NCBI GenBank assembly: GCA_018434685.1
Contig: JAHDOV010000012.1
Coordinates: 1,590-65,589 of the forward strand
From: Deltaproteobacteria bacterium
GTDB lineage: Bacteria; Desulfobacterota; Desulfomonilia; UBA1062
Direction: 5' to 3'
Length of the DNA: 64,000 bases
The stretch's first letter is position 1; each line of letters starts with the position of its first letter. This document shows positions 38,716 through 58,612 of this stretch, piece by piece. A program made the position numbers and the translations under genes. The notes under the pieces were generated by a model that did no database searches, was not told the DNA's origin, and saw only the letters and a list, made by a program, of their open reading frames with translations.

Positions 38716-38746
38716 ATGCTCAACGAGATCTCAAGGGGAGGATTAC

Positions 38747-40009
38747 ATGGGAAGAACCTGTACATTGGGCGTTTGGACAAAAGTATTTGCCGTGGTGTTT
38801 TTCTCGCTCGGCCTGTCTCTGGCTGCCCGTGCCGACATGGGCAGAGTCTATGTCAGCCTTGATCCGGTCACGGTGAGCGAGGACTCGCAGAAGGCCATCA
38901 TCCTGCACAATCTCGCTGAAGAGGTCCTGATCCTGGGCACCGACCTCAGGGCCTCGAAGAAGACCGGGGTCATCAGGTTCATCCCCTTCCCTGCCGAGCC
39001 TGCTGTCGACCTGGCGCCCGAGGGCGCCTTCGAGAAGGCAGCGGCCATGATCAAGAAATACGGATTGAAATATCAGTATCTTCACTATACGAAAGGCGGC
39101 CCTGCCGATGCGGAAACGCAGGGAGTCGAGCTTCGCCTGAACAAGAAGCTAGGTGCCCATGACCTGACGATCATCAAGGTCAACGACGTCTCGCAGTTCA
39201 GGCAGTGGGTGAACGAATACTTCAAGGCGAGGGGGCTTCCCGCGAAAGAGCAGTATCCCGAGGAAGAGGCCGTGGTGGATGACTATGTGAAACGGGGGCT
39301 CATCTACTTTGTCCTCGATTATGTCGAGGTCTCCGACGAGCCGCGCTTCATCGAGCCCGTCGCATACCGGTTCACAAGCAAAGAGCTGTACTATCCGCTG
39401 AAAACATCGAACACCTTCGGCGGTCAGGGCAGCATCGAGCTGATCATCATCGCGCCCACCACCTTGTGTTTTGCCGGCAACGAGCCCCTCGACCCCTACA
39501 GCGGAGCGCTCTACAAGGAAGAGCACCCTCAAGCGCAGAGGCCCTACGGCCAGAGGCCGCTGTGCCTGAACATCCCCGTCATAGCGAGCACCTCGGCGCT
39601 TCTCGTAAAGAAAGATAAGGACCTGGACGGGATTTATCCCGGTGGAGAGGATTTCTTCAAAGACCAGAAGGCATTCATCCAGGTGGTGAGCTATACGGGC
39701 AACTACTTCTTCAATGACGATATCTTCGTCGATGTCTCCACAGGCATGCCGGCCGAGGCAGGGGTGTATGAAGAGGAAAAGGATGACCGCTATGGCGAGG
39801 TATTTACTTCTCTCGCCGACCCCGCAAAAAAAAGATGCTCTCTGAAGCCGGACCCGGGGCCGTGCAAGGCCCTGTTCGAACGGTATTACTACGACCCTGT
39901 CAGCAAGACCTGCAAGGCATTCTTCTGGGGCGGCTGTGGCGGGGTCGTGCCCTTCGAGACAGAAGAGGAATGCAAGAAATGCCTTGAAGACGGAGGAACA
40001 AGCAAATGA
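38747..40009 (+). CDS. Secreted protein with a C-terminal Kunitz/BPTI serine-protease-inhibitor domain
   Basis: An ATG follows an aggggagg RBS and a signal peptide follows. The last ~55 aa, CSLKPDPGPCKALFERYYYDPVSKTCKAFFWGGCGGVVPFETEEECKKC, match the Kunitz six-Cys spacing and the GPC...RYYY...C..F.YGGC...EEC..C signature. Confidence 0.7.
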   Translation: MGRTCTLGVWTKVFAVVFFSLGLSLAARADMGRVYVSLDPVTVSEDSQKAIILHNLAEEVLILGTDLRASKKTGVIRFIPFPAEPAVDLAPEGAFEKAAAMIKKYGLKYQYLHYTKGGPADAETQGVELRLNKKLGAHDLTIIKVNDVSQFRQWVNEYFKARGLPAKEQYPEEEAVVDDYVKRGLIYFVLDYVEVSDEPRFIEPVAYRFTSKELYYPLKTSNTFGGQGSIELIIIAPTTLCFAGNEPLDPYSGALYKEEHPQAQRPYGQRPLCLNIPVIASTSALLVKKDKDLDGIYPGGEDFFKDQKAFIQVVSYTGNYFFNDDIFVDVSTGMPAEAGVYEEEKDDRYGEVFTSLADPAKKRCSLKPDPGPCKALFERYYYDPVSKTCKAFFWGGCGGVVPFETEEECKKCLEDGGTSK

Positions 40010-44749: not shown

Positions 44750-45526
44750 CTACCCGTCGGTCAACTTGCCCTGCACGCGGATCATGAACTGCGGCCGGGC
44801 CGGGTTGTCTGTCTGCACATAGATGGTATCCCGAATCACCCCGGCCTCTTTCCTCGTGTTCTTTGCCCAGATGAGGTATCCCTTCTTGTCATCCTGCGTT
44901 ATCTCCCGGTATCCGTACGTGATGAAGATCCCCCTCTTGGCCTTGAGGGCGGTTATCTGAAACGGATACTCAGCAACAGGAATGACGACTGATGAGCCCT
45001 CGATTTCAGTGCGCCACGGCCCGCTCAACATGATGGTGTGCTCCGAGATATCGGCGAATTTCTTCACGAAGCAGGAGATGTCGATTGTCCATTCCGGGTG
45101 CTCGGGATCATTGGTCATCGCGCGGATGGTGCCCCGTATCTCCTCCCCGCCGCGGCGGTTGGTCAGGAGCACCGTCTTGATGACGCCCTCCTTCCCGGCA
45201 GGTATCATCTGGCTATAAGATTCCACCAGGCTACCGCAGCATGCCTCTACCTTTTTCAGCTCGAGCACGGTGTCCAAGGTGTTCCGGACAATGAAATCGT
45301 GCCTGACCATATCGAACTGCAGGACCGGTTCAAATTCATAGGAGCTCTCCGGTGCATCTACCACAGATTTTGAATACACAGGCTTTTCAGGGATGCCGAA
45401 ATAGAAGGGGTCTTCTTTCATTTCTTTAGCCGGGTAGTTATCAGTGATTGCGCACCAGCCCCATGAAAGAATGATCACTCCTGCCACGCCCAACAATAGA
45501 GATATAAGGACTACCCTTTTTTTCAT
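44750..45526 (-). CDS. DUF1573 domain-containing protein
   Basis: It has a signal/TM helix, a DUF1573-like core (YEFEPVLQFDMVRHDFIVRNT...CCGS) and a second similar repeat. Confidence 0.6.
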   Translation of the reverse strand: MKKRVVLISLLLGVAGVIILSWGWCAITDNYPAKEMKEDPFYFGIPEKPVYSKSVVDAPESSYEFEPVLQFDMVRHDFIVRNTLDTVLELKKVEACCGSLVESYSQMIPAGKEGVIKTVLLTNRRGGEEIRGTIRAMTNDPEHPEWTIDISCFVKKFADISEHTIMLSGPWRTEIEGSSVVIPVAEYPFQITALKAKRGIFITYGYREITQDDKKGYLIWAKNTRKEAGVIRDTIYVQTDNPARPQFMIRVQGKLTDG

Positions 45527-45779
45527 GACACCCCCCTTTCCAATCAGGAAAACACAACAATCAAAAAACTCACTTTATGACAAAAAGTATGTCTCCATAT
45601 TTACTACAACGGAATAAGTATTTCAACGTGCCATGAGTTCAAAGATAGAGGCGGGAGGGGATACCTGAGAAGGCTGCCACGCATATTCCATACTGTCTCC
45701 TGCCCCATCCACCCGGAAAAACAATCACCGCAGCAAGGGTTATCCGGAATGCCTATGTCATGCCCGCCCGGTAGACAGT

Positions 45780-45995
45780 CGTATAATCCTTTGACAAGAC
45801 AAGAAAACAGCGCTAGATATCAGCTACATACACCTTCTGGAATTTCCGCACCTGTGATTTTTTACCTGGATAACCATGATGAACTGTTTGATGAGTGCAC
45901 ACACAATACCCATCTGCACCCCTGATGCACGGAGTGCGTGTTTTTTCAGGCGCTAGGCTCTCGGCGCTGGGTTGAAGGAACAACTCCATTGCCCT
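45780..45995 (+). repeat. Copy A of a ~210-bp repeat carrying an outward-facing sigma70 promoter
   Basis: It is about 93% identical to 49268..49490. Confidence 0.75.
45791..45819 (+). promoter_or_regulatory. Pc-like sigma70 promoter, copy A (TTGACA-17-TAGATA) facing the cassette ORFs
   Basis: A consensus -35 TTGACA at 45791 is followed by a 17-nt spacer and a TAGATA -10 element. A perfect TATAAT lies just upstream at 45783. Confidence 0.45.
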
Positions 45996-46133
45996 GCAGA
46001 AGGGAAAGGAAGTCATTTGGAATATAATATTGGTTTAATATAGTTGTAATTGCTTGCCTGATAGCCTGTTCGCCTACAGGATTTAGGTATAGTAATTGTT
46101 ATAAGCCCATATCTAATTTGATAGGAGTCAAAT

Positions 46134-46607
46134 ATGAGGTTATCGATCAATCTTATTGATGATGAGGTGGAAAAAGCAAAAATCGGTTATAAGACTGCTA
46201 CAAGCATGATTAAAATACTGGGTCAAGAAATTTACAGTAGGTTTAATGCAATGCTTATGGCAAACAGCATCATTATAGCAGTATATGGGTTTATTTTTTC
46301 AGAAAAAACCAACTTGCCAGACTTTTTTAAAATATTGTTACCTATCTTTGGAATCGTACTATGCTTTTTATGGTTTGTGTTTATTAACAATGGGATTCAC
46401 CGACACAGACAATATAGGAAAGAAGCTGAAAGATTAGAAGAAACATATTTCAATTCCACCTTTCACTTGTTTCGGATCAATTATGCAAACGATCCATGTC
46501 TTCTGAAGTGTTTCAGATTCAGACGTTTATCGATATTTGTGATAGATATTTTCGTGCTTTTGCATTTATCTGTACTTCTCTATAGTTGTCATAAACTTCT
46601 ACTTTAA
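46134..46607 (+). CDS. Cassette ORF: hypothetical membrane protein (157 aa)
   Basis: A low-GC ORF followed by an attC-like site. Confidence 0.5.
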   Translation: MRLSINLIDDEVEKAKIGYKTATSMIKILGQEIYSRFNAMLMANSIIIAVYGFIFSEKTNLPDFFKILLPIFGIVLCFLWFVFINNGIHRHRQYRKEAERLEETYFNSTFHLFRINYANDPCLLKCFRFRRLSIFVIDIFVLLHLSVLLYSCHKLLL

Positions 46608-46611
46608 AGAG

Positions 46612-46672
46612 CTTATAACAAGCCACTTCAGCCGACGGCCTACGGCCGCGGCTGACCGGCACGTTATGCGTT
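46612..46672 (+). repeat. attC-like recombination site
   Basis: The sequence TATAACaagccacttcagccgacggcctacggccgcggctgaccggcacGTTATgc has complementary ends and internal imperfect inverted repeats. Confidence 0.55.
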
Positions 46673-46680
46673 AATGGAGT

Positions 46681-47256
46681 ATGAATAATATGCAAAAGAA
46701 TATACTGAGCATTCTTTTCATTTTTGTTTTGTTATTAGTGATCGCAGTCTCAGTAATTCAAAATGATTCCTTATCAGTTTCTGATGCTATTTACGCCCTC
46801 ACCGCATTGATAATTCTTTGGTATTCATACGAGACGGCAATAATGCGTAACGAGATGATTAAACAGAATAGAATGTTAATGAGGCCGGTCTTAAATATAA
46901 AATTGGATAATAATAATGTTTTTTATAATAACGATGGTTCGGGACCTGCTCTCAATATTAAAGTTACTGACTTCAAGCCGACTATTAAAACTTCCACAGA
47001 TAATACTTATTACGAAATACAACCAGTCTCATATATTCCTCAGGGTGGTAGTGATAAAATCATCATTCATAGTGGTAATTCTGAAACCGGGGCAAAAGGT
47101 ACTGTTCCAGAAACTGACATGTTTTTTGGAGTTGGGAAGCAAGTTCAAATTACTATCGTATATGAGGATATGGAAGGCACTGAATACGAAACCAAGATCA
47201 CAACTAATTCAGGTAACGTTAATAGTGTTTCATTCAAAAGGTTAAAAAGCGCATAA
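46681..47256 (+). CDS. Cassette ORF: hypothetical membrane-anchored protein (191 aa)
   Basis: A low-GC ORF bounded by attC-like sites. Confidence 0.5.
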   Translation: MNNMQKNILSILFIFVLLLVIAVSVIQNDSLSVSDAIYALTALIILWYSYETAIMRNEMIKQNRMLMRPVLNIKLDNNNVFYNNDGSGPALNIKVTDFKPTIKTSTDNTYYEIQPVSYIPQGGSDKIIIHSGNSETGAKGTVPETDMFFGVGKQVQITIVYEDMEGTEYETKITTNSGNVNSVSFKRLKSA

Positions 47257-47310
47257 CCAGGTCATCCACCGGACGGCTTATAGCCGCCGGTGATGCCCAC
47301 GTTATGAAGA
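47252..47310 (+). repeat. attC-like recombination site
   Basis: The sequence cATAACcaggtcatccaccggacggcttatagccgccggtgatgcccacGTTATga has a caccggacggc/gccgccggtg stem with unpaired bases. Confidence 0.55.
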
Positions 47311-47343
47311 CAATTATCTCAGCTGTACTTTTGAAAGTGATAA

Positions 47344-48201
47344 ATGAACTCCTTCAGTACTAGAGAAATAGCCGTTTCGTTCTGGACCATCGCCTTTTTT
47401 GGATTGGCTCTCTCCACAAAGGGTGTGCGGGAGAACGCTTTGGCACTGGTTAGGCAAGCTTTCCTCTCTAAGCTAATTTTAGTATGGTTGTCATTAGCTT
47501 TATATTCTGTGATCTTGGTTCTCTGTTTTCGAGAACTGGGCTTTTGGACAATCGGCCTTCTTAAAGACACACTAATCTGGTTTGTATTTTGCGCCTTAAC
47601 GTATCCTTTTCAGTTCCACGACCCACAGAAAACACCCCGAGTACTCAGGATACTCATACGCGACAGCTTGTCCGTACTCATTGTTGTTGAAATCCTTGTG
47701 GAAACGTATACGTTCTCATTGCCGATCGAATTAATTATTGTTCCTACCGCTACTTTTATCGCGACGATGGGTGCGGTAGCCGAGATGCGAGAGGATCACA
47801 AGCCAGTCGCCAAAATACTTGGCAATATTCAAGCGATCTTAGGATTCGTCCTCATCGCGATTGTGGTTAGACGGGCAGCAACAGATCCATACCACAGTTT
47901 TGTTGCGGCACTTTTATCTTCGTTGATTGTTGTGGTTCTAAGCCTCTCGACATGGCCCTATATTTGCTCTCTGCGGTTTGTTTTCGCATATGAAGGAATG
48001 TTGTGGCGGATTGGCTGGAAGAAAAACGTATCCAGGGTATTCAAACACTTTGCGGTATTTCGCATCATGCGGCACCTTAAGTACCGGTCGACGGCGGTTG
48101 CACCTTTCATTCGCAGGAACGCCTTCAAGCTAAATGATGTTGTCGATAAGAATAGTCTTGAAGCACTTTTGAGTGAGGACCGGAATAGGGCAAGTGAATA
48201 A
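47344..48201 (+). CDS. Cassette ORF: hypothetical polytopic membrane protein (285 aa)
   Basis: A low-GC ORF. Confidence 0.5.
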   Translation: MNSFSTREIAVSFWTIAFFGLALSTKGVRENALALVRQAFLSKLILVWLSLALYSVILVLCFRELGFWTIGLLKDTLIWFVFCALTYPFQFHDPQKTPRVLRILIRDSLSVLIVVEILVETYTFSLPIELIIVPTATFIATMGAVAEMREDHKPVAKILGNIQAILGFVLIAIVVRRAATDPYHSFVAALLSSLIVVVLSLSTWPYICSLRFVFAYEGMLWRIGWKKNVSRVFKHFAVFRIMRHLKYRSTAVAPFIRRNAFKLNDVVDKNSLEALLSEDRNRASE

Positions 48202-48204
48202 ATA

Positions 48205-48345
48205 ATCGGGGTAAATAAATGGGGTCGGCATAAATAAATGGGGACGAGAAACTGGGAGTCAGGTCTTGCATTATAACATTTTCATCACCCCTGTTTATTA
48301 ATGTGGCACTGCAAAACCTGAGCCCATCTTTTTAGGAGGTTTTAT
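48205..48345 (+). repeat. Composite element: MITE-TIR footprints (aaataaatggggtcgg, two copies) plus a long attC-like palindrome
   Basis: A 14-bp inverted repeat, gtcaggtcttgca ... tgcaa(a/g)acctga(g/c)cc, flanks a ~40-nt spacer at a cassette boundary. Confidence 0.45.
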
Positions 48346-48346
48346 T

Positions 48347-49078
48347 ATGGTTGCTCTATTAATTATTTCTGCATTTATTATACAGTTTTTAATTTTATTT
48401 TTGTTTAAAGAAGCTAATACAATCAAAAGGGCATTTATTAATATTATTATTAACACATGCATACTTATAATTACTCTATCTTTTATAGAAAACCATGATA
48501 CTAAAGGTGCAATAGTAATAATATGTGTGTTTTCTTATTTTTTTAGCGGCATATTAATTTATTTCGGATTAATATCTAACACAGAATCTCAAGCTAATAA
48601 TGCGATACCTGACCAAACAAACAAAACAAATCGTAATTATGCTAAAGCTTACCCGTCTAAATTATTTCCTGACTATCCTATAAGACCTCAAAATATTTTC
48701 ATTTTAGATGAACCGATTTGGGACCAGAGTTTGGCCAACATAAGTATGATAGGTCTTTGCATCACCAATGAATTCCAAGTGTGGAAGAATAGCGTCGGTA
48801 ATTATAAGTGGCCATCTTATGCTAATGAAGAACTTTCAGCGCTGATTAATGCATATCATCAAATGCAAGCGAAAGTGCCAAATGGAATAACTCATACCGT
48901 AAATGTTCAGGAGGTGAGAAAGTTAGCTATGTCTTATATAAATCTCTTAAGGAATGATGATGTTCTTTACAGTGAATTTATGGCAGGGCAAATAACCTTG
49001 TTCAATTTATCACTTGACTTTGCAAATACCATAGCTTGCGGTGGAACATTACAAACCAGTTTAGAATGGTATGGCTAA
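48347..49078 (+). CDS. Cassette ORF: hypothetical membrane protein (243 aa)
   Basis: A low-GC ORF (~30% GC) following a taggagg RBS. Confidence 0.5.
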   Translation: MVALLIISAFIIQFLILFLFKEANTIKRAFINIIINTCILIITLSFIENHDTKGAIVIICVFSYFFSGILIYFGLISNTESQANNAIPDQTNKTNRNYAKAYPSKLFPDYPIRPQNIFILDEPIWDQSLANISMIGLCITNEFQVWKNSVGNYKWPSYANEELSALINAYHQMQAKVPNGITHTVNVQEVRKLAMSYINLLRNDDVLYSEFMAGQITLFNLSLDFANTIACGGTLQTSLEWYG

Positions 49079-49099
49079 TTTACAAGATACACAATTGGA

Positions 49100-49185
49100 A
49101 CCCGGGCTTATGGGGTCAGGTCTTGCATTATAACATTTTTATCATCCCTGCTTATAAATGTGGCATTGCAAGACCTGACCCCACC
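49100..49185 (+). repeat. Long palindromic attC-like element
   Basis: The structure is ggggtcaggtcttgca-N40-tgcaagacctgacccc. Related copies occur at 48265 and 58160. Confidence 0.45.
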
Positions 49186-49267
49186 TTTCCAAGGAATACA
49201 GTAATATAAGGGAGAAACAGGGGACGTCCCCTACATGCACCACGGACGTCCCCTACATCCCCGACTG

Positions 49268-49490
49268 ACAGCCGCATAATCCTTTGACAAAACAGGAAAA
49301 CAGCGCTAGATATTAGCTACATACACCTTCTGGAATTTCCGCACCTGTGATTTTTTACCTGGATAACCATGATGAACTGTTTGATGAGTGCACACACAAT
49401 ACCCGTCTGCACCCCTGATGCACGGAGTGTGTGTTTTTGAGGCGCTGGGCACCAGGCGCCGGGTTGAGGGAATCGCTCCATTGCCTGGCA
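49268..49490 (+). repeat. Copy B of the ~210-bp promoter-bearing repeat, lying 3' of the IntI remnant
   Basis: Near-identical to 45780..45995. TTGACA is at 49284 and TAGATA at 49307. Confidence 0.75.
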
Positions 49491-49541
49491 GAATCGCTGT
49501 AGGAGCGGCTTCAGCCGCGACAATCCGAGAACTATGCAGTT

Positions 49542-49763
49542 CCCCCTGTTCATGACATGGGTGTAGATCATGGTGGTGTTCACGCTCTTGTAGCCGAGCA
49601 GTCCCTGCACTCTACGGATGTCATACCCGTCTTCCAGCAGCCTCGTGGCAAAGCTGTGGCGGAAGGTGTAGCAAGCGATGGGTTTATGGATCGTGGCTTT
49701 TTTCGCAGCTGATTCTACCGCCTTTTGAAGGCTGCCTGCATCTATGTGATGACGCAATGTGCA
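49542..49763 (-). pseudogene. intI: Integron-integrase-like tyrosine recombinase, C-terminal catalytic fragment only (5'-truncated)
   Basis: The fragment [64 protein letters not shown] carries the box II HxxR...Y region, closely matching the IntI/XerD consensus RHSFAT.LL.(S/E)[20 protein letters not shown]. The N-terminal ~250 aa are absent. Confidence 0.6.
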
Positions 49764-49879
49764 TTTTTTAAAATACGGTTTCATTCCGTAAAATGTAATA
49801 TATATCACAAAATACGGAATGGTTCCGTATAGTAATTGTTGGCCTTATGAACCACAGTTTGATTTGAAGGAGGCTCCTC

Positions 49880-51283
49880 GTGGAAATTCCATTAAGTGCT
49901 TTATTTGAAAATGTTGGATTAATCGCAAATGGGAAACCTGTTTTAAAGAATATTCGTAGAATTACTCCAACTCGAATTATAGATTTATGTGATCAAGCTT
50001 CTGAGATAACCTTTTATGAAAATCTTATTAATTCCAAGTCAATTTTTTCACATGCTGCCTCTGCATCAATTGGTGTTGATCGATCACCTTGTGAATGCCT
50101 TGAATGTCGTTTAAACAAAGCTTATGAATTAGCCCAGTTTGCAGCACTATACAGTGATAAAGTGTATATTAGAAATTTTTTTAATGATTACAGAAGTCCA
50201 AGCTATATTAGTAATTTCAAAAAGACTGATTTAACTGAGTCGCTAAAAAATGATTTAATTATATACACCGCACTTCTTCCTCTATTGGAAGCAGGTAAAG
50301 TTGAAATGGTATCATTTGGCGACATATGCCCGCATTGTTTGAGCATAAGAGCACTACATGAAAATTCCAAAATAGAATATGAAAAAGCGTCCAAAGAACT
50401 TGAAAGGAGGTTTTATAAAGAAGTTACTTTTTCATTGCATTATGAAGATGGTGAAGTTGCAATATCTGCCTCCGGGCCAGATTTTTTATTACCCCATGGG
50501 ACACTGTTCTTGGTTTACAGAAATCCGACCGACATCTTACCACAGAATCCTAAACTGATTGAAAAAGCAAAAGCTTCTGGTGAGATTAAGTTAACTTCAA
50601 ACCAAGCTAAAGAAATTAAAGCTGCAGCAAAATTTTCAAGCAGGATTACTGATAGTGTTGCTTTTGAGTTGGGCGGTGCAAATTTCCTTAATTCTTATTA
50701 CCTGTCTGATAGTGAGCTTGAAATAGATTTTATTTGTAGTTTAACAAGAGATCCTTTTGCACGTAGGCGTACTTCTCTTATGGGGAGATACCTTACTTGT
50801 CTAGTCCCCTTTATTGACTCTGTTAATATTATAGATTTATTGACTCTTAGAGAAAGAGAGCAGGAAGCTTTTATATTATTTAGAACAGCTTTGTCTAAAG
50901 CCATAGATGAATACAAAACTCAGGGTAAATCATTTACCGAAAGGGATGCCCAGGCAGTTTACTCTGATATTATACAACCAAGATTGGCGGAACTTGACCT
51001 TAGAATCCGCAAAGCTAAAACTTCATTTAGAAAAAGTGGCTATCGCAAATTAGTTGGTTGGGCAGGAGCTATATCAGTTGGACTTTATACTGGTATCTTT
51101 ACAGCAAATCCTTTAGCTGGTGTTGCAGCCTTCAGTGCTGCTAAATTAGGATCTGAAGTGATAGAAGATACTATGTCAAAGAGTGATGTAACAGAAGAAA
51201 TTAAGGGAGATAATATGTTTTTTTTGTGGAAGGTAAAGGAGCTTTCAAAAACATCGTCTATCAACGGACCAGTATTTAATTAA
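49880..51283 (+). CDS. Cassette ORF: hypothetical 467-aa protein with Cys motifs (CECLECR; CPHC) and a C-terminal hydrophobic helix
   Basis: It is the first ORF after the IntI remnant, follows a aggagg RBS, and is low in GC. Confidence 0.55.
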   Translation: MEIPLSALFENVGLIANGKPVLKNIRRITPTRIIDLCDQASEITFYENLINSKSIFSHAASASIGVDRSPCECLECRLNKAYELAQFAALYSDKVYIRNFFNDYRSPSYISNFKKTDLTESLKNDLIIYTALLPLLEAGKVEMVSFGDICPHCLSIRALHENSKIEYEKASKELERRFYKEVTFSLHYEDGEVAISASGPDFLLPHGTLFLVYRNPTDILPQNPKLIEKAKASGEIKLTSNQAKEIKAAAKFSSRITDSVAFELGGANFLNSYYLSDSELEIDFICSLTRDPFARRRTSLMGRYLTCLVPFIDSVNIIDLLTLREREQEAFILFRTALSKAIDEYKTQGKSFTERDAQAVYSDIIQPRLAELDLRIRKAKTSFRKSGYRKLVGWAGAISVGLYTGIFTANPLAGVAAFSAAKLGSEVIEDTMSKSDVTEEIKGDNMFFLWKVKELSKTSSINGPVFN

Positions 51284-51287
51284 GAAA

Positions 51288-51350
51288 TAGTCAACAAAAG
51301 GTTGCATCCGACGCGCTTTGTGCGCGGCTGACCCTTATCGTTATCTGTAA
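51288..51350 (+). repeat. attC-like site
   Basis: The sequence aacaaaaggttgcatccgacgcgctttgtgcgcggctgacccttatcgtt contains an imperfect palindrome. Confidence 0.45.
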
Positions 51351-51366
51351 AGGAAGATGCATATAG

Positions 51367-51975
51367 ATGAGAACAAATAGTCGTTTGATCTTGACAACAT
51401 GTTTATTAATCGTGCTCTCGTTAATAGTTTATTCCTCAATAGGTTATTCATTTATTTTCAATTGTCCCGAAGTCATTATTGTTGATAGAAGTGCAAATGA
51501 AAGGGATCTATTCTCTCTTTTGCAAGTTATTGTTGGTGGTTCAATTGGAATTATTGGTAGTGTCATTGGTGCTGTTATAGTCTCCTTATTAAGATCACGA
51601 AATGAAAGAAGAACCTTTCTACGATCTAAGTCAGAGGAAATACTCTATCTCGCTTATCAATGCGATGAGTGGCTTGATAAGTTGATTCTTGGCTATCTAA
51701 TCCAAGGAGATATTGATACAATATTTAAGAAATATCCTGTTAACAGGCTTAAGGTTCTTCAAACGAAATATTTCCCAACTCTTAAAGATGATGTAGACTC
51801 TCTCCTTGCTTCTGTAAAAGAATTTCGGACAGCTATCATATCAGAACGAAATGATTTCATTAAAGTCAAAGAATATAGCCCAGAATTTAAAAAGAAATAT
51901 GATCCATTACAATCTAATGTCTTGAAATCGATTGCAGAGATCGAGAAGAAAGTTGCTTTATTAAAATATGTTTGA
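51367..51975 (+). CDS. Cassette ORF: hypothetical protein with 2 TM and a cytoplasmic domain (202 aa)
   Basis: A low-GC ORF. Confidence 0.5.
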   Translation: MRTNSRLILTTCLLIVLSLIVYSSIGYSFIFNCPEVIIVDRSANERDLFSLLQVIVGGSIGIIGSVIGAVIVSLLRSRNERRTFLRSKSEEILYLAYQCDEWLDKLILGYLIQGDIDTIFKKYPVNRLKVLQTKYFPTLKDDVDSLLASVKEFRTAIISERNDFIKVKEYSPEFKKKYDPLQSNVLKSIAEIEKKVALLKYV

Positions 51976-51998
51976 CCAAACAATAAGCAAGGAAACAG

Positions 51999-52055
51999 AT
52001 AACCAAAGAATGCACCGGACGGCTTTCAGCCGCCGGTGATCCTTGGCGTTATGCA
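51999..52055 (+). repeat. attC-like site
   Basis: The sequence gATAACcaaagaatgcaccggacggctttcagccgccggtgatccttggcGTTATgc. Confidence 0.55.
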
Positions 52056-52124
52056 TCACTGCTGATGACATATTAACCTTGAGAATGACTGAACATGGTG
52101 AACATTGAAGGAGGAATACTAATG

Positions 52125-52826
52125 AAATATTCTCCAATGTTTATAATTTTATTCTTATCAATTTTTGCCACATCTTGGGCTGCTGAAAAAAAAGAAACAT
52201 CGCATTATGAGGTCGTAGACGAATATATAAGGTCACTTGGAACGACCTATAATTTACAGCAGGTGGCAAAAAAGGATATAGAAGTTGATAATAAATCTGA
52301 TGATCCTGCCATTGCGGGTTTGATGTCTGGCATCCGTAACAGCACACGAGTAAAACTGGAACTCAATTATAGCATTCAAAAACTCAAAGGAATGAACCTC
52401 AATAATCCTTTTGACACCTTGCTTCCTACAACTATTGATTTCTACAAAAATAAACATGAACTTCATGATGATTTAATCAAAATAGCAACAAATCTTTTAT
52501 CAGGTCCCAAACCTGGAGTTGATTACGGAAAAATGGCTGCGATAATGCCACAGATAACGGCTCAAGTTGAATATATCGATGAATCTATCTTCCAATTAAT
52601 GCCTATGGTGTTTGCTCTACTAATAGATACGAAACCAGACAGTGAAGGGCACATGAGTCATCTGAACATAAGCACTGCACAGAAACTAAAACTTATTGAT
52701 AGTATAAATGGGTATTTCGGTGAGAGCTTGGATCAGAAGGATAAGAACTGGACTGTGAGTTCTGCTGCTGTGCTAAAAGCATATTTATTAAAGGATTATA
52801 AATGTACTGATGAATGGCATAAATAA
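52125..52826 (+). CDS. Cassette ORF: hypothetical secreted protein
   Basis: It has a signal peptide (MKYSPMFIILFLSIFATSWA). Confidence 0.5.
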   Translation, partial: KYSPMFIILFLSIFATSWAAEKKETSHYEVVDEYIRSLGTTYNLQQVAKKDIEVDNKSDDPAIAGLMSGIRNSTRVKLELNYSIQKLKGMNLNNPFDTLLPTTIDFYKNKHELHDDLIKIATNLLSGPKPGVDYGKMAAIMPQITAQVEYIDESIFQLMPMVFALLIDTKPDSEGHMSHLNISTAQKLKLIDSINGYFGESLDQKDKNWTVSSAAVLKAYLLKDYKCTDEWHK

Positions 52827-52842
52827 AAAACTGCATAACAAA

Positions 52843-52900
52843 AGGATGCACCGGACGGCTATCAGCCGCCGGTGATCCTTGCCGTTATGAGGTAATCTAC
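52843..52900 (+). repeat. attC-like site with two extrahelical bases
   Basis: The sequence cATAACaaaaggatgcaccggacggctatcagccgccggtgatccttgccGTTATga. The ends ATAAC and GTTAT are complementary, and ggatGcaccggAcggc pairs with gccgccggtgatcc with two unpaired bases. Confidence 0.6.
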
Positions 52901-52916
52901 AATAAAGACAATTCAA

Positions 52917-53459
52917 ATGAATCAATTTGAGAAACGAAATGAAGTAGCAATATATTGGTTCAATAAGTCATCTGACTTAAGAGGATCTGCTGCTGACCTA
53001 TGGACAAGTCAAGAGGAGAAACAATCAGAATCAATAGTGCAAAAGTGTGGACTTGGGCAAGGTTTTATTATGGCTGCGGCAGTGGGATCGGTATTTTGGA
53101 TGCTTTGTGGGATGTCTTTAGAGTTACAATATAAAGCCATTATTGTTGCAAAAGGTGAAAGAGCAGTACATTCTCATGACCTTGTTAAGTTGGCTAAATT
53201 GGTTGGATTACATGTTGATAAGAAGACAGAAACTGTTCTGAAGATATTGACCGAATCAATAATCTGGTATGGTCGATATCCAGTACCCAAAACTCAAGAG
53301 CCTATGGAAAACCTTCATGATCTCTTAGATGATTTTTTTTATGATGATGCACCACCAGGTAAGTTCAAAATTCGAAAAAGGAATGTTTCTCTCAGTTGGA
53401 ATTTATTTAATAGGTTATGGTTAGATGGAAGCAAAATTTACTGGGAATACACCTCATAA
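52917..53459 (+). CDS. Cassette ORF: hypothetical protein (180 aa)
   Basis: A low-GC ORF. Confidence 0.5.
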   Translation: MNQFEKRNEVAIYWFNKSSDLRGSAADLWTSQEEKQSESIVQKCGLGQGFIMAAAVGSVFWMLCGMSLELQYKAIIVAKGERAVHSHDLVKLAKLVGLHVDKKTETVLKILTESIIWYGRYPVPKTQEPMENLHDLLDDFFYDDAPPGKFKIRKRNVSLSWNLFNRLWLDGSKIYWEYTS

Positions 53460-53514
53460 CCAGCGCATCCAGGCGGACGGCTTGCAGCCGCCGCTGATGC
53501 ACAAGCGTTGTGCG
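53453..53514 (+). repeat. attC-like site
   Basis: The sequence CATAACcagcgcatccaggcggacggcttgcagccgccgctgatgcacaagcGTTGTgc. Confidence 0.5.
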
Positions 53515-53523
53515 AAAACTCAT

Positions 53524-54156
53524 ATGAAAATAGATACGATAAAAAATAATGCCCGATTAGTTTGGCGTTACCTTATTTCACGTGACTTGTCCTTCTGGTC
53601 AGTTGTGGCAACGCTTCTCCTTGTACTCATCACCCTGGCTTTAGCCGTCACCACCAAACAAATGGCTGATGTAATGTCAAGAGACTATATGGTTCGCACA
53701 ATGCCAGTTTTCCGAACGACAACGCCGCAGGTGACGACTACGGATAATGAGACAATTTTAACCTTCATGGTCGCAAACGTAAGCCAAGGCATCGCTAAGG
53801 GTACAGTTCATAATGTTTATATTGAAGACACTATTGGCAATATAGTTCCTGTGCAAAATGTAGTTGTCGGAAAGGGCACTTGGGCGAAGAAGCTGAATGA
53901 GATACCAATAGACTATGTTTCAGGTACAAAGGAGATTATCAAGCTGACTTGGCCGTTGAATTCGGTATCGCCACAAAAAATAGAGACGGTCGTTATTGTG
54001 TTGGAATTCACGACACTTTTCGACGAAAAACTACACAGATACATTGAAGGCTTTATTTATGAACCTGATCACAATAACCTTGATCCAATGACGCAGGATA
54101 GGCTTTCGCTTGTTCTTGAAAAAATCGAGAAGAAGACCGGAAGGAAGATTAATTAG
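53524..54156 (+). CDS. Cassette ORF: hypothetical membrane-anchored protein
   Basis: An N-terminal TM helix (FWSVVATLLLVLITLALAV). Confidence 0.5.
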   Translation: MKIDTIKNNARLVWRYLISRDLSFWSVVATLLLVLITLALAVTTKQMADVMSRDYMVRTMPVFRTTTPQVTTTDNETILTFMVANVSQGIAKGTVHNVYIEDTIGNIVPVQNVVVGKGTWAKKLNEIPIDYVSGTKEIIKLTWPLNSVSPQKIETVVIVLEFTTLFDEKLHRYIEGFIYEPDHNNLDPMTQDRLSLVLEKIEKKTGRKIN

Positions 54157-54159
54157 TGA

Positions 54160-54230
54160 GAAAACGCACAACCTCAGCATCCAGGTGGACGCGGGCTTTC
54201 GCCCGCGCCACTGATGCTGGCCGTTCGACG
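54160..54230 (+). repeat. attC-like site
   Basis: The sequence acaacctcagcatccaggtggacgcgggctttcgcccgcgccactgatgctggccGTTCGAC. Confidence 0.5.
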
Positions 54231-54242
54231 GAATTTTAACTT

Positions 54243-54770
54243 ATGAGTGATTTTACAGACAGATATATCATAGATGGGAAATTTGATATTTGCCGCCTGA
54301 TCAATGACGATTTTGTTCTAGCAATAAAGGAAACATGGAATAAGAAGCATTATACTTCATGTTTAAAATTACTTGTTTCCTTCATTGATACTATGGCTTT
54401 TGTTGAAAATGGTGATAGCTCAAGTGCTTTCTTTAAAAAGTGGGTAAGTACGTATGTTGATTTGGCTCCCATAGGTATTTCTCCTGATGAGTTATGGGAA
54501 CACAGGAATGCTCTTCTTCATATGTCTACGTATGATTCTCGCAAGGTATTGTCTGGGGCTATCACGCGATTAGTTCCCTATGTTGGTTCCTCGGAGCCTT
54601 CAATAAACGAAAATACTGCAAAGTATTATTCACTGTATTCGCTAATTATGGCTGTCATGCAAGGCTTGGGTAAGTATATTTTGATCATGGAAAATAATAA
54701 TGCCATGCGGCAACGCTTCTGTGACAATTATGAAAAAACAATATCTGATTCTCATTTTATCATACCATGA
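54243..54770 (+). CDS. Cassette ORF: hypothetical protein (175 aa)
   Basis: A low-GC ORF. Confidence 0.5.
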   Translation: MSDFTDRYIIDGKFDICRLINDDFVLAIKETWNKKHYTSCLKLLVSFIDTMAFVENGDSSSAFFKKWVSTYVDLAPIGISPDELWEHRNALLHMSTYDSRKVLSGAITRLVPYVGSSEPSINENTAKYYSLYSLIMAVMQGLGKYILIMENNNAMRQRFCDNYEKTISDSHFIIP

Positions 54771-54771
54771 A

Positions 54772-54832
54772 GCGCCGAACCAGCCACTGCAGCCGACGCG
54801 TTACCCGCGCGGCTGACCGGCACGTTGGATTC
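54772..54832 (+). repeat. attC-like site
   Basis: The sequence ccgaaccagccactgcagccgacgcgttacccgcgcggctgaccggcacGTTGGat. Confidence 0.5.
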
Positions 54833-54934
54833 ATTTAGATAAATATGAGTGAGAAAGGAGGTTGTATTATGAAAGAAATATTTTATGAGGGTTATAAAAT
54901 TACCGCATCACCTGATCAATTAGCAGAGTATAAT

Positions 54935-55168
54935 AAATGGGGTCGGACCAAGATAACTAATTGAAATGATGTTTAAAAGTGCTTTAAATTGGCCTTTTTT
55001 TGACCTTAGAGCCGCCATTTCAGGCCCGAAAAAGTGGTTTTAAGCTTTACCCCAACTTCTTACAGTGCCCATTTTGACACCGAAAAGCATGTTCTAAGCC
55101 CTGAAAATACCTGTTTTTGGAACATAAATAAAGATATATCAACAAGTTGACTTGGTCCGACCCCATTT
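54935..55168 (+). mobile_element. MITE-like non-autonomous element (~234 bp) with 19-bp perfect terminal inverted repeats
   Basis: The TIRs are TAAATGGGGTCGGACCAAG and CTTGGTCCGACCCCATTTA. It has no ORF and contains internal duplications. Confidence 0.6.
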
Positions 55169-55260
55169 AGTTAGATTTTGGGGTCACCCATTTTCATTTT
55201 CTGCATTCCTGAGCTTTGACGCGAGATGGCGAAAACATGGTTAGAACGGAGGGATACATT

Positions 55261-55680
55261 ATGCCAGCAGAAATAATAAATGATGCGTTATTAGATCAAT
55301 TGAACACCAAGGTGACCGAATACCTGACTGTATCTGGAAATTGCGCACAAACCAGTTTTTTGACACTCCAGGAAGGATTCAACCTGGAAGGTGGAGCAAT
55401 TCTGAAAGCACTTACCCCTTTCCCTGGCATTGGTTTACGCGGTGAAACCTGCGGTGCTGTCATTGGATCGCTCATGGCACTCGGGCTGGTGTATGGACGT
55501 GGTCGAGATCAGCTTGGGGATTGGTCTGCTTTTTACGCGTCACTTCGACCGGCGAGACGATTTTGTCGAGCATTTGAAAAAGAATATGGCAGCACAATGT
55601 GTGGCGATATAGTAGAGGCACAATTTGGGAAGCGTTACAATCTGGCTGATCCTGCAGAATCAATGGAATGGTACACTTGA
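55261..55680 (+). CDS. C_GCAxxG_C_C family protein (putative redox-active cassette ORF)
   Basis: It has the GNCAQTSFLTL signature and downstream CG and C residues. Confidence 0.5.
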   Translation: MPAEIINDALLDQLNTKVTEYLTVSGNCAQTSFLTLQEGFNLEGGAILKALTPFPGIGLRGETCGAVIGSLMALGLVYGRGRDQLGDWSAFYASLRPARRFCRAFEKEYGSTMCGDIVEAQFGKRYNLADPAESMEWYT

Positions 55681-55682
55681 GG

Positions 55683-55795
55683 GAAAACAGGGGACGTCCA
55701 TGAAATATGGACATTTAAAAACGGAACCCTTCAGAATAGACATGATACCCATATCAAATGTCACAATTTCATGGACGTCCCTTAAATGCTCCCAC
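55683..55795 (+). repeat. Inverted-repeat element at a cassette boundary
   Basis: The structure is ggggacgtccatgaaat - ~75 nt - atttcatggacgtccc. The head motif gggaaaacaggggacgtcc recurs at 49209, 59636 and 62324. Confidence 0.45.
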
Positions 55796-56164
55796 GCCAG
55801 TTGCAGTACGCTCTGATAAACTTTTTGAAAATTGCCTTTAGATCCAATTTTTTGGCATAGATGCCTTCTTTTGTATAATTTCTAAATTATTTCGCCTGCC
55901 TCCCGGTAAACCAGTGCACTATTTCAAATATCCCGGCGTATTTCTTGCTTGAGACTTGACATACAACCTGATGTCTGAAATACAAGAGGTCATTAAAAGC
56001 AATGTACTATTCCTTTCTATATTGCTTTTGCGAGTCTGTAAGAAACATCTTTTGGGTCAATAAAAATAGAGATAATGGGTAATAGTGGGCCGCTGTTTCC
56101 TGTTTTATTCGGGTAGGACTTACTTAGGGTATTAATTTCCGATTCTATACTTATCACCAGGAGA

Positions 56165-58135
56165 ATGCAAATGAAGAAAAGGTTATTGATCACATGTTTG
56201 TCTCTTGTTGTTCTGATTATGAATGCAGGGTGCGGTGGAAACGATGGCAAGACGGTTGACGATACCACCCCCATTGCCAACACCGCTCCCATTGCCGATG
56301 CCGGTTCAGATCAGGAAGTCTCGACGGGCGCTCTGGTGACGCTTGATGGCAGCGCAAGCAGTGACGCAGATGGGGACGCGCTCACGTATGTGTGGTCTTT
56401 GACTTCCGCACCATCTGGAAGTTCAACCGTTTTGACGGCCGCCGATACTGCCGGGCCGACCTTCACTCCCGATTTTGATGGGGAATACGTCCTGAGCCTG
56501 GTTGTCAACGACGGCACGATTGCCAGTCCGGCGGATACCATGACGGTTTCCGCATCCACTGCGAATTCAGCGCCTGTGGCCGATGCCGGTTCAGACCAAA
56601 CGCTTGTATTCGGCACGCCTGCCACGCTCGACGGCAGTGCGAGCAGTGATACGGATAGCGACTCGCTCACCTATACCTGGAGTTTTGTGTCCGTGCCGGC
56701 GGGGAGTGCGCTGACCCAGCTGACGGATGGCGCCACTGTTGCGCCAAGCTTTACGCCCGATGTAATGGGCGCATATGTCGTCCAGCTGATCGTCAGTGAC
56801 GGGCTGATCGAGAGTCCTGCCGATGCCTTGACGGTCAGGGCGGTGTCTCCGTTCATCGCAGGGATCGCGACGACCCCCCAGCAGGTTGATGGAGATCTCT
56901 TCAGTTCAATAGATGAACCCCAGGTGGCAATTAACGACTCAGGGGACATTGTAGCCGTGTGGATTACCGACGATGGGGGCGAAGAGGAAAGTGTCTACGG
57001 CAATCGCTACGATGCCGTCGGCGGAACCTGGACGACTCCGACGCTGCTGGAGACCAACGATGTTGCCTACCCGGAATCACTTGAGCTGGCCATTGACGCC
57101 TCGGGCAATGCGGTTGCTGTCTGGCGCATGTATAATTACTACGGAATTAACCACATTTACGCCAACCGTTACGATGCCGGAGACGATGCATGGGGAACCG
57201 CCGTGGTTCTCGATACGACCACGCAAGACACCTCATATCCGGATGTCGGCATGGACAGCGCGGGGAACGCCATCGCGGTTTGGCTGGAAACCCTGCCAAG
57301 TGGCAATGAGGCCATTATATCCAGGCGGTATGACGTCAATTCCGACACCTGGGTTGCGTCAGAGTCGTTGGACTACCAGACGGTCAATCAATGGGAGCCG
57401 CGTGTGGCGGTCAACGCCTCCGGTAGCGCGATCGCGGTGTGGAGCCAGCAGTATGGCCCTCTGGGGAACGAAATAGACGTTTACGCCCAACTCTATGATC
57501 CGGACACCGGTTGGGGTGCGGGTCAGCGCCTCGATGCCCTGCCGGGGGATGCTATGCATCCAGCTCAGCCGGCCATCGATGCTGCGGGAAATGCCGTGGT
57601 GATCTGGAAACAGAACGACGACGACAACACCCCAATGACAGAGAGCCTGTATGCCAATTTTTACACCGCCGGAGACGGCCTCTGGGGAGGCAGCGTGCTT
57701 CTGGAGACCCTTTCCGACCGAGTGGAATCGGCGCCTCAGGTGGCCATGGACGGCAACGGGAACGCCATGACCGTCTGGACCCACTATAATTTCACCCTGG
57801 ATCGGGATGTTTATGCCAGCCGCTACGATGCGGCGGACGGCTGGGGAACTCCCGTACTCCTCGAGACGGATACGGCGGCCGCCTATAATGCGGAGGTGGT
57901 GATGGATGGCAGCGGCAATGCGCTTGCCCACTGGGAGCACCATCTTGGCGCCTATTCCAGCGCCCCGGCAGTCCCCGTTATCAATCGTTATGACGCGGCC
58001 ACGGACAGTTGGGGAGGCATGGAGCAACTGGACGATCGGGGCAATGAATCCGCCATAGCTGCCAACGCATCCGGCCAGGCGGTGATCATTTGGGTAAAAG
58101 ATTATGATTACGTTTATTCAAGCCGGTTAGAATAA
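56165..58135 (+). CDS. Lipoprotein with two PKD-like domains and a 7-repeat (beta-propeller-like) C-terminal region
   Basis: It has a lipobox (MNAGC) and two IADAGSDQ...LDGSASSD.DGD.LTY.WS units. Seven repeats of ~45 aa each contain (D/N)xxGNA(V/I)AVW. Confidence 0.7.
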   Translation: MQMKKRLLITCLSLVVLIMNAGCGGNDGKTVDDTTPIANTAPIADAGSDQEVSTGALVTLDGSASSDADGDALTYVWSLTSAPSGSSTVLTAADTAGPTFTPDFDGEYVLSLVVNDGTIASPADTMTVSASTANSAPVADAGSDQTLVFGTPATLDGSASSDTDSDSLTYTWSFVSVPAGSALTQLTDGATVAPSFTPDVMGAYVVQLIVSDGLIESPADALTVRAVSPFIAGIATTPQQVDGDLFSSIDEPQVAINDSGDIVAVWITDDGGEEESVYGNRYDAVGGTWTTPTLLETNDVAYPESLELAIDASGNAVAVWRMYNYYGINHIYANRYDAGDDAWGTAVVLDTTTQDTSYPDVGMDSAGNAIAVWLETLPSGNEAIISRRYDVNSDTWVASESLDYQTVNQWEPRVAVNASGSAIAVWSQQYGPLGNEIDVYAQLYDPDTGWGAGQRLDALPGDAMHPAQPAIDAAGNAVVIWKQNDDDNTPMTESLYANFYTAGDGLWGGSVLLETLSDRVESAPQVAMDGNGNAMTVWTHYNFTLDRDVYASRYDAADGWGTPVLLETDTAAAYNAEVVMDGSGNALAHWEHHLGAYSSAPAVPVINRYDAATDSWGGMEQLDDRGNESAIAANASGQAVIIWVKDYDYVYSSRLE

Positions 58136-58159
58136 AGGGTGAAAGCAGGGTCAAGGCAG

Positions 58160-58275
58160 GGTCAAGGGGTCAGGTCTCAACAATCAATAACTATATTCAA
58201 TTTGTCAAATGTTGAGACGCGACCCCTATTTACTACGACCCCTATTTACTATTTACTACGACCCCTATTTACTAT
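58160..58275 (+). repeat. attC-like palindrome followed by 3.5 tandem copies of a 16-nt unit
   Basis: The palindrome is gggtcaggtctcaaca ... tgttgagacgcgaccc. The tandem unit is cgacccctatttacta. Confidence 0.45.
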
Positions 58276-58420
58276 TCATGCGAAAAAGCACCGCATACAA
58301 TTGTAGGCCGGGGTGGTGACTAAGTCGGCTCCCTGATATCCTGCAAAGACTCTGGATTCCCGCCTGTTCGCGGGAATGACTGATGTGCCCTTTTTGATGG
58401 TATAACTGGGGTCGTATAAC

Positions 58421-58612
58421 TGGGGTCGGACCAAGATAACCAATTGATATAATGTTTAAAAGTGATTAAAAAGGGCCTTTTTTTGCCCTTAGAACCAGCA
58501 TTTTAGGCCCAAAACAGTGGCTCTAAGCTTTGAAAACACTTTTTCCGGCACATAAATATCAACATATCTGCAAGCTACCTTGATCTTACTCCAAAAAACA
58601 GTATTGGGACGT
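58421..58612 (+). mobile_element. Second, degenerate copy of the MITE-like element
   Basis: It has a left TIR TAACTGGGGTCGGACCAAG with a duplicated head, a shared core ...aagggcctttttttgccc..., and an eroded right end. Confidence 0.45.

Follow-up and report, generated by a model that had tools for sequence, protein, structure and literature searches.

A low-GC island of same-strand genes

We analysed a 64,000-nucleotide (nt) stretch from a Deltaproteobacteria bacterium (assembly GCA_018434685.1, contig JAHDOV010000012.1, positions 1,590 to 65,589 of the forward strand), which is called the window below and numbered from its first letter. The element in question is a low-GC island at about 45.6-56.0 kb that very probably represents the remains of a decayed chromosomal integron with the canonical divergent layout. 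The guanine-plus-cytosine (GC) content is 0.55-0.60 across most of the window, 0.34-0.45 in the island and 0.54-0.60 at 56-58 kb. The plus strand of the island carries 11 consecutive open reading frames (ORFs) of 139-467 amino acids (aa), of which 8 contain one or more hydrophobic 19-mers by a crude hydropathy scan. The original prediction, made from the letters of the window, had described a sharp GC fall from about 45.5 kb, at least eleven short ORFs on the same strand and, as their explanation, a degenerate chromosomal integron in which an IntI remnant accompanies cassettes bounded by attC. The GC fall and the ORFs are both seen, and the integron was borne out; it survives all three refutation tests set in advance, namely an attC model that scores none of the sites, a recombinase fragment closer to XerC/D than to IntI, and ORFs that form one conserved operon.

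The island falls into two blocks. Block 1 has two complete cassettes, one cassette without attC and then a non-integron insert. Block 2 has six complete cassettes, and its seventh is cut by a miniature repeat element. A pseudogene of the integron integrase gene, intI, lies on the minus strand just upstream of block 2.

Eight attC sites between the ORFs

Repeat finding and alignment revealed eight related elements of 57-64 nt between the ORFs, which start with ...AAC, end with GTT... and contain imperfect inverted repeats, the same hallmarks of attC sites that had been claimed for them. Folded as DNA, their bottom strands form a terminal R-box stem of 6-7 bp, a small internal loop and a long stem; six of the eight have the R-box stem in their minimum-energy fold. 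The folding energies range from -10 to -23 kcal/mol, with z-scores of -3.99 or below for five of the eight sites, and agreement with the 7-mer consensus boxes is 5-6 of 7 positions for R'' (RYYYAAC) and 5-7 of 7 for R' (GTTRRRY). In the proposed fold check for an extrahelical G and T, a T bulges from the long stem in all eight sites, and the second bulge, located 6-8 nt further out, is a G in three (C in four, A in one). The window sites agree in this respect with the external set described below, in which the second bulge is C in 57 sites, G in 50, A in 13 and T in three.

To find these external sites we used a seed pattern taken from five of the window sites (TAAC-N12-13-CSGACGSS-N5-SSCGCSGSTGA-N7-9-GTT), which matches five times in the window and not once in 100 shuffles. 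Its information content predicts about 0.3 chance matches in a 596-Gb genome collection, where it was found in at least 120 places spread over many phyla. Among the matches listed, many sites bear full GCCTAAC...GTTAGGC boxes that the pattern does not specify, and 16 of 120 pattern-chosen stretches (up to 8 kb each) encode an IntI with the IntI-specific domain. Many of the stretches hold same-strand arrays, such as those of loci L105 (at least 13 sites) and L068 (10 sites). At stem positions left unspecified by the pattern, 84.9% of the cells in the external sites are paired, versus 28-38% with the partner column slid, and double-sided changes occur in 421 cells, versus 183 in shuffles.

A covariance model (R1) was then built from 123 external bottom strands, with zero window sequence, and run over the whole window with the filters off. 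It retrieved exactly eight sites, with scores of 42.5-70.9 bits and E values of at most 1.7e-8, which is a positive outcome for the covariance-model check that had been suggested. All eight lie on the minus strand, meaning that the cassettes read on the plus strand, and three of them (attC3, attC7 and attC8) did not match the seed pattern. The top strands at the same positions score 10-28 bits, the bottom strands about 35-50 bits higher. No further attC site was found in the window, the next-best unrelated bottom-strand match of R1 scoring 9.6 bits. As a positive control, R1 detected the attC sites of aadA2, a gcu cassette, blaOXA-2 and aac(6')-Ib in two class 1 integrons (24.7-48.3 bits); all of these lie on the intI1 strand and upstream of intI1, a geometry identical to that of block 2. 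As an independent control, it gave 44 matches in 27 of 80 metagenome loci picked solely by similarity to the IntI stub described below. An Rfam scan of 45000-56500 (E of at most 1) returned no match to an attC family, and a blastn search with one of the attC sites against plasmids returned chance-level matches only. By structure, strand and model score the eight elements are attC sites; their recombination is predicted.

The attC sites are less alike than first thought. They had been described as highly similar to one another, as in the homogeneous arrays of sedentary integrons, but their pairwise identity within the array averages 69% (range 59-92), and for seven of the eight the nearest relative lies in another genome's array and not in their own. 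The outside relatives of these seven are 84-96% identical and come from arrays of Desulfomonilia, Syntrophaceae and other 'deltaproteobacterial' metagenome-assembled genomes (MAGs); attC2, for instance, shares 96% identity with a site of a Syntrophaceae MAG (L056). Such near-identical sites tie the cassette pool of a moderately GC-rich host to the arrays of these other lineages.

The G^TT footprint delimits the cassettes

Because cassette circles are cut at G^TT, whatever follows a G^TT in an array comes from the downstream cassette, with whose own R'' it is expected to pair. Exactly this footprint is found along the island. At seven junctions the extension after G^TT is complementary to the R'' of the attC that comes next, over 9, 8, 9, 8, 10, 8 and 5 uninterrupted nt, each value being the unique maximum of its row, with the other sites giving 3-7 nt from the shared core. 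The eighth junction, from the attI-2 site (see below) to attC3, gives a 4-nt tie. The complementarity of R'' and R' within a cassette is explained only by recombination of circles at G^TT, and the own-R'' pairing thus delimits eight complete cassettes. The units measure 565-1502 bp and have one ORF each, with 5' leaders of 16-73 nt that are in most cases too short for a promoter of their own. The ORFs are also independent of each other, since their G^TT extensions pair with their own R'' and since ORF5, ORF8 and ORF10 have relatives in unrelated contexts; they do not form one conserved operon.

All the cassettes lie on the plus strand. Block 1 begins with cassette A (46099-46663, 565 bp), which is made up of ORF1 (46134-46607) and attC1 (46613-46669, 63.4 bits; own-R'' match 9 nt), followed by cassette B (46664-47301, 638 bp) with ORF2 (46681-47256) and attC2 (47251-47307, 63.8 bits; 8 nt). 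ORF2 encodes 191 aa with a hydrophobic N-terminal segment, and its stop codon lies within R''. The next cassette is partial (47302-48205): ORF3 (47344-48201), which encodes a protein of 285 aa with about six hydrophobic segments, begins 42 nt past the G^TT of attC2, and no attC was found at its 3' end, R1 being silent between 47310 and 51284 even with the filters off.

Block 2 begins with cassette C (49839-51340, 1502 bp), which comprises ORF5 (49880-51283, 467 aa) and attC3 (51289-51346, 49.0 bits). It is followed by cassette D (51341-52048, 708 bp) with ORF6 (51367-51975, 202 aa) and attC4 (51997-52054, 70.9 bits; 9 nt), cassette E (52049-52884, 836 bp) with ORF7 (52122-52826, 234 aa) and attC5 (52833-52890, 68.5 bits; 8 nt), and cassette F (52885-53507, 623 bp) with ORF8 (52917-53459, 180 aa) and attC6 (53454-53513, 59.7 bits; 10 nt), the stop codon of ORF8 lying within the R'' of attC6. 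The last two complete units are cassette G (53508-54223, 716 bp), with ORF9 (53524-54156, 210 aa) and attC7 (54166-54229, 42.5 bits; 8 nt), and cassette H (54224-54824, 601 bp), with ORF10 (54243-54770, 175 aa) and attC8 (54774-54830, 52.5 bits; 5 nt). The start of a ninth cassette (54825-54933) holds a small ORF that opens at 54869 and runs into a repeat element at 54934; R1 finds no attC downstream of it in the window. The original prediction had counted at least 12 cassettes. Eight complete and two partial ones are present, with only eight attC sites where 12 cassettes would need at least 11.

A stub of the integron integrase

The intI pseudogene occupies 49527-49757 on the minus strand and retains the C-terminal approximately 77 codons, with box II and the region of the catalytic tyrosine; its 3' end is decayed and it has no start codon. 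The catalytic C-terminus is readable as RHSFAT...LLGY...MIYTHV, in keeping with the minus-strand IntI-type fragment (RHSFAT...TTMIYTHV) that had been noted there. The stub scores 108.9 bits with the TIGR02249 integron-integrase model of NCBIfam, over positions 233-309 of 315, versus 72.8 bits with XerD, 69.6 with XerA and 64.8 with XerC, so that the comparison of IntI with XerC/D came out on the side of IntI. With Pfam PF00589 it scores 59.9 bits (cut-off 27.1). Its nearest database relatives are 64-76% identical, and its top matches in a plasmid collection are all annotated as integron integrase, with 54.9% identity to IntI1 over 71 residues. In the longer relatives (P0002, P0004, P0009 and P0012) the IntI-type stretch LERKY...WQYVFP...DPRS...RRHH stands directly N-terminal to the point at which the stub starts, and the residues of the stub after NRG have drifted from the relatives' ...V.SP.D tail. 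No other tyrosine-recombinase motif was found in the 64-kb window.

With the stub in hand, a quite different explanation of the island can be weighed, in which the repeats are generic palindromes, such as repetitive extragenic palindromic (REP)-like sequences or terminators, in an acquired low-GC island, and the stub is an unrelated phage or XerC/D-type remnant. The island does contain a 73-77-nt hairpin, a 91-nt hairpin and a miniature inverted-repeat element, all described below, and its GC content is unlike that of the host. However, the eight sites fit a structure-aware model that was made from IntI-adjacent sites and that picks up class 1 attC too, their strand asymmetry and bulged bases are those of attC, the R'' and R' of each cassette are complementary, and for the stub the IntI model exceeds XerD by 36 bits. 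This explanation is extremely improbable and, as far as sequence analysis can do so, already refuted.

Several points nevertheless weigh against reading the island as a decayed integron of the divergent kind. The whole case is built on sequence. The 108.9 bits of the stub lie below the full-length cut-off of the IntI model (265), about a quarter of the protein being left, and since the region of the IntI-specific domain is deleted, its identity as IntI rests on relative scores and on its nearest relatives. The seed pattern behind R1 came from five window sites, and the model is to that extent not fully independent, which the class 1 and IntI-selected controls mitigate. The evidence for the first of the two attI sites, described next, is an identity over 14-18 nt only. 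Finally, 41 of the 44 attC matches near the closest metagenomic IntI relatives (80 loci, L131-L210) lie downstream of the 3' end of intI and on the opposite strand, that is, in the co-oriented 'inverted integrase' arrangement, and the stub is 62-70% identical to both the canonical and the 'inverted' IntI groups, so that similarity cannot place it in either. Among the matches listed from the genome collection, the divergent layout of block 2 is found at 10 of 14 IntI-bearing loci.

Two attI sites and natural turnover at related ones

The array was said to begin at the very point where intI is truncated. In fact, about 80 nt with a conserved attI intervene. This site, attI-2, is on the plus strand at 49771-49838 (68 nt, apparently complete), with the crossover after G 49838. 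It contains two palindromes of the form TACGG-N7-CCGTA, at 49774-49790 and 49813-49829, which are 39 bp apart, are partly kept in the attI of loci L002 and L003 and might serve either as integrase-binding repeats of this attI family or as the operator of a regulator.

L002 and L003, together with L004, carry the closest IntI relative (P0001, 74% identical to the stub). In L002 the spacer between the start codon of intI and the first divergent gene is identical to attI-2 at 55 of 68 positions (81%), and identity falls to 20 of 60 to the right of ATTG^TTGG. The two loci come from two samples and both (L002 531-664, L003 91-224) have the same broken intI, in pieces of 132 aa and 82 aa, and an identical attI. 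When they are compared with each other, 120 of 121 positions agree to the left of G^TT and 23 of 60 to the right, which indicates different first cassettes at the same attI and is natural evidence of cassette turnover there. The first cassette of L002 encodes a 124-aa protein with a weak ThsB/TIR-like Pfam match; no attC was found in L002. From its conservation up to the crossover, attI-2 is a bona fide member of this attI family. The family is thereby defined together with natural variation of the first cassette in L002 and L003, and could be put to experimental use.

A second, much shorter trace lies at the head of block 1. The attI-1 remnant (46083-46100, plus strand) corresponds to the last 14-18 nt of attI (TTAGGTATAGTAATTG^TT), with the crossover after G 46098. 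The 14-mer GTATAGTAATTGTT has just two copies in the window, each ending at the G^TT of the first cassette of a block (46098 and 49838), and the 9 nt from the G^TT of attI-1 are the reverse complement of the R'' of attC1. The sequence upstream of attI-1 (46002-46086) has no homology to copy 2 of the platform.

A platform duplicated in tandem

The similarity between the heads of the two blocks extends further. Platform flank copy 1 (segment D, 45752-46001) is identical to 49252-49493 at 160 of 168 and then at 48 of 60 positions, and flank copy 2 (segment D', 49252-49493) lies directly beyond the 3' end of the intI remnant. Copy 2 of the platform (49252-49838) thus consists of the flank, the last approximately 77 codons of intI and a full-length attI, while copy 1 (45752-46100) consists of the flank, 85 unrelated nt and an attI core of 14-18 nt, its intI being wholly lost. 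Independent Logan contigs are 100% identical to the window and include the copy-specific variants; one of them (L211, window positions 45882-49328) joins copy 1, ORF1 to ORF4 and copy 2 through these variants, and the arrangement is therefore not an assembly artefact. The platform is duplicated in tandem, and its copies are at differing stages of decay. This duplication, the surviving attI and the repeat elements other than attC inside the array are three features that the original prediction had missed.

One may ask whether copy 2 is the single platform and block 1 merely a group of cassettes inserted at a secondary chromosomal site that happens to resemble the attI core. Copy 1 does share just 14-18 nt of attI, the 85 nt upstream are unrelated, and insertion of cassettes at such sites is documented, as cited by Cury et al. 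2016 (PMC4889954) and as reported in bioRxiv 10.1101/2022.09.11.507474. Against this, the 250-bp flank D is duplicated as well (94% identity over 168 nt), both copies share their orientation and their side relative to the crossover, and a chance secondary site would not carry the flank along. Moreover, a 14-nt identity that ends exactly at the crossover goes far beyond the GTT-level requirement of secondary sites. We consider such an origin of block 1 very unlikely and retain the tandem duplication.

Segment D was also considered as a small RNA gene, with a promoter-like site, a length of about 125 nt and a terminator-like hairpin. This candidate was rejected: the z-scores of folding are -0.4 to +0.5 on both strands of both copies. 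A conserved 22-mer of D had zero matches in the metagenome collection, and D has no match in any of the retrieved loci.

The consensus sigma70 promoter that had been proposed to face into the cassettes is not supported as such. The sequence TTGACA-17-TAGATA exists, and it does so twice, in both flanks (45791-45819 and 49284-49312). However, TAGATA agrees with the -10 consensus at three of six positions and lacks the final T, and the site is not listed by a promoter scan. It is also misplaced, lying beyond the 3' end of intI and about 530 nt from attI-2, and in copy 1 a terminator-like hairpin (45925-45946) stands between it and the cassettes. Promoter-like sites are not enriched in the region (24, versus 33 +/- 6 in shuffles). 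Weak ones overlap attI, for example at 49804-49833, and might act as a cassette promoter (Pc); consensus matches of this kind cannot decide function. A complete integron would have a functional integrase and a Pc; at this locus the integrase is a stub and the proposed Pc is unsupported.

Decay and possible mobility

The following course of events would account for the island. An IntI tyrosine recombinase would once have taken up circular promoterless cassettes by recombining the folded bottom strand of attC with attI at G^TT, and repeated capture would have lined the cassettes up head to tail along the plus strand. In copy 2, a deletion of about 760 bp would later have removed the rest of intI together with the intI promoter region; comparison with L002 places its ends about 60 nt upstream of the start codon and at about codon 230. 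We infer the order of these events, as we do the size of the deletion. An array without its own integrase at the locus would be unable to rearrange itself, but its eight attC sites seem to be intact and could still serve an IntI provided in trans.

The claim that the platform is immobilised accordingly holds in cis, where intI is broken, and leaves room for action in trans by an IntI encoded elsewhere in the genome. The array might even be alive, as one of several attC clusters whose cassettes an intact IntI elsewhere in the genome excises, shuffles and exchanges. All eight attC sites score as high as or higher than functional class 1 sites and fold properly, attI-2 is conserved across its whole length, and the closer kinship of seven of the eight attC sites to other genomes' arrays fits exchange with a shared pool. 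In addition, about half of the attC clusters that have no integron-integrase (CALINs) lie in replicons that encode IntI, and their mobilisation in trans has been argued to be possible (Cury et al. 2016, PMC4889954). On the other side, no second tyrosine-recombinase motif exists within the 64-kb window, the order of the cassettes is identical in the only other assembly of the organism, and the repeat elements in the array, together with one cassette without attC, suggest relaxed maintenance. Present-day mobility would thus be conceivable, though we find it the less convincing reading, and prefer to see the island as an array that has lost its integrase.

Comparison with known integrons

By the classification of Cury et al. 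2016 (Nucleic Acids Res 44:4539), the locus is a CALIN with a neighbouring intI pseudogene. The element type as such is already well known, decayed chromosomal integrons and integrase-less attC clusters being common and well described. In that survey 15 of 279 CALINs had a detectable intI pseudogene, and attC sites were clustered with a 4-kb threshold (PMC4889954). Like those 15, the window has a recognisable intI pseudogene within 10 kb of its attC cluster, and the gap between attC2 and attC3 is 3.97 kb, below the 4-kb threshold, so that the eight sites probably make up one cluster. The window differs in that its stub lacks the region of the IntI-specific profile, and in that it keeps an attI and a tandem platform, neither of which figures in the survey's classification. 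The locus is therefore one of a minority of integrase-less attC clusters in whose sequence an origin through loss of the integrase is still legible. It is a clear and fully dissected instance of an integron in mid-decay, with two tandem platform copies at differing stages, one an intI stub with a whole attI, the other an attI core without intI.

The layout is that of a class 1 integron (intI1-dfrA12-gcuF-aadA2 of pNDM-T2, NZ_MN335919.1): both are divergent, with the attC bottom strands on the intI strand, the array upstream of the 5' end of intI and an attC architecture that R1 detects. In contrast to class 1, the window element appears to be chromosomal, carries no resistance genes and no Tn402/3'-conserved segment (3'-CS) context, and has had its integrase destroyed; nor do its cassettes match any that are known from mobile integrons.

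In sedentary integrons intI is intact, and the attC sites, which are highly similar, number from tens to hundreds. The array of the window resembles the Vibrio cholerae superintegron in that it appears chromosomal, in its uncharacterised cassettes with many small membrane-type proteins and in a GC content unlike that of the host. Unlike sedentary integrons, however, it is small (eight attC sites), is heterogeneous (mean identity 69%) and has no recognised toxin-antitoxin cassette. The homogeneity of attC sites in sedentary integrons is documented in Cury 2016 (PMC4889954).

The loci of the closest IntI relative share with the window an orthologous attI, the crossover and the divergent layout, and their intI is likewise broken. 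They differ in that most of the intI gene is still there, in the host flank, which consists of trehalose synthesis genes and has no counterpart of segment D, and in their cassettes.

Content of the cassettes

Few of the cassette proteins can be assigned to a family. ORF1 encodes 157 aa and matches the Pfam 8xMP membrane protein family (PF24838, 50 bits). In a Coralloluteibacterium integron (L048), the gene for a distant relative of ORF8 sits between intI and the nearest attC, and a distant relative of ORF10 is found in another array locus (L085). The original prediction had suggested defence or toxin-immunity systems among the cassettes. This receives no support from PADLOC, in which the ten cassette proteins gave no significant match (the only one, of ORF1 with a 4TM effector model, has E 0.0026 and 15.5 bits and falls short of significance), and no toxin-antitoxin cassette was recognised in profile scans of the array proteins.

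ORF5 belongs to a conserved family of proteins of about 460 aa, of which 56 homologues were collected, none with a Pfam domain; ORF5 itself had zero matches in Pfam, NCBIfam or PADLOC. It has an N-terminal alpha/beta domain with four conserved cysteines (71, 76, 150 and 153), and C-terminal hydrophobic helices. Its AlphaFold model reaches a predicted local distance difference test (pLDDT) score of 79 and has no convincing structural neighbour. The relatives, inspected at five loci (L125, L127, L129, L214 and L215), are single genes. Some stand beside type I restriction-modification and GmrSD genes, others beside a DpnI-like nuclease with a serine recombinase or among toxin-antitoxin pairs, and further ones in contexts that are unclear or of the housekeeping type; attC sites were not found next to the relatives. 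A two-gene system of ORF5 and ORF6 across cassettes was considered and rejected, because the 182-aa genes that follow the ORF5 relatives in L125 and L127 are related neither to one another nor to ORF6. A new stand-alone function against phages or in abortive infection may be encoded by at least one uncharacterised cassette, a speculative and rather unlikely idea for which the ORF5 family would be the best candidate. In any case, the cassettes supply a few orphan proteins and one conserved uncharacterised family as candidates for functional screens.

Inserts and repeats other than attC

The non-integron insert of block 1 (48206-49251, read on the plus strand) contains tandem repeats, an orphan ORF and a pair of palindromes. 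The tandem TAAATAAATGGGGTCGG repeats are at 48212-48247. ORF4 (48347-49078, plus strand, 243 aa) has no attC, and a homologue search returned ORF4 itself as the sole match. It is flanked by direct copies (48255-48331 and 49112-49188) of a near-perfect palindrome of 73-77 nt (GGGGTCAGGTCTTGCA...TGCAAGACCTGACCCC), which folds at -24.8 kcal/mol with a z-score of -6.9 and whose arm motif also occurs at 58165-58180. ORF4 and its flanking palindromes may represent a small mobile unit of another type that entered the array. Just left of platform copy 2, GGACGTCCCCTACAT is present twice at 49222-49265 (within 49215-49265).

The ninth cassette is cut by a miniature inverted-repeat element of 236 nt (54934-55169), with terminal inverted repeats of 34 nt (TAAATGGGGTCGGACCAAGATAAC...). 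A second, partial copy of this element lies outside the island at 58405-58560, and its terminal motif also forms short tandem repeats at 48212-48247 and 58218-58280. The start of the repeat, GGGGTCGGAC, resembles that of the terminal repeats of the Tn3 family; no target duplication was seen at the element. The repeat motifs of the inserts recur outside the island at 58140-58560, and these repeats are dispersed host repeats that invaded the array.

Beyond the 236-nt element, and still inside the low-GC island, is a gene of the C_GCAxxG_C_C family (55261-55680, plus strand; Pfam PF09719, 65 bits). It had been taken for a cassette gene, a view that is not supported: R1 finds no attC on either side of it, and its GC content is 0.47, versus 0.32-0.37 for most cassettes. 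On its 3' side there is a 91-nt hairpin (55691-55781) with arms of 26 nt (GGGACGTCCATGAAAT...), the motif of which is related to GGACGTCCCCTACAT. A match of this hairpin to the plant microRNA family MIR4378 of Rfam (55688-55784) is spurious, with 38 bits against a gathering score of 90.

Upstream of the island, at 38552-42348 (positions 3504-7105 of locus L001), the precomputed Pfam list for L001 places a 780-aa ankyrin-repeat protein beside a 420-aa protein with a Kunitz/BPTI domain, a gene pair that is unusual for a bacterium.

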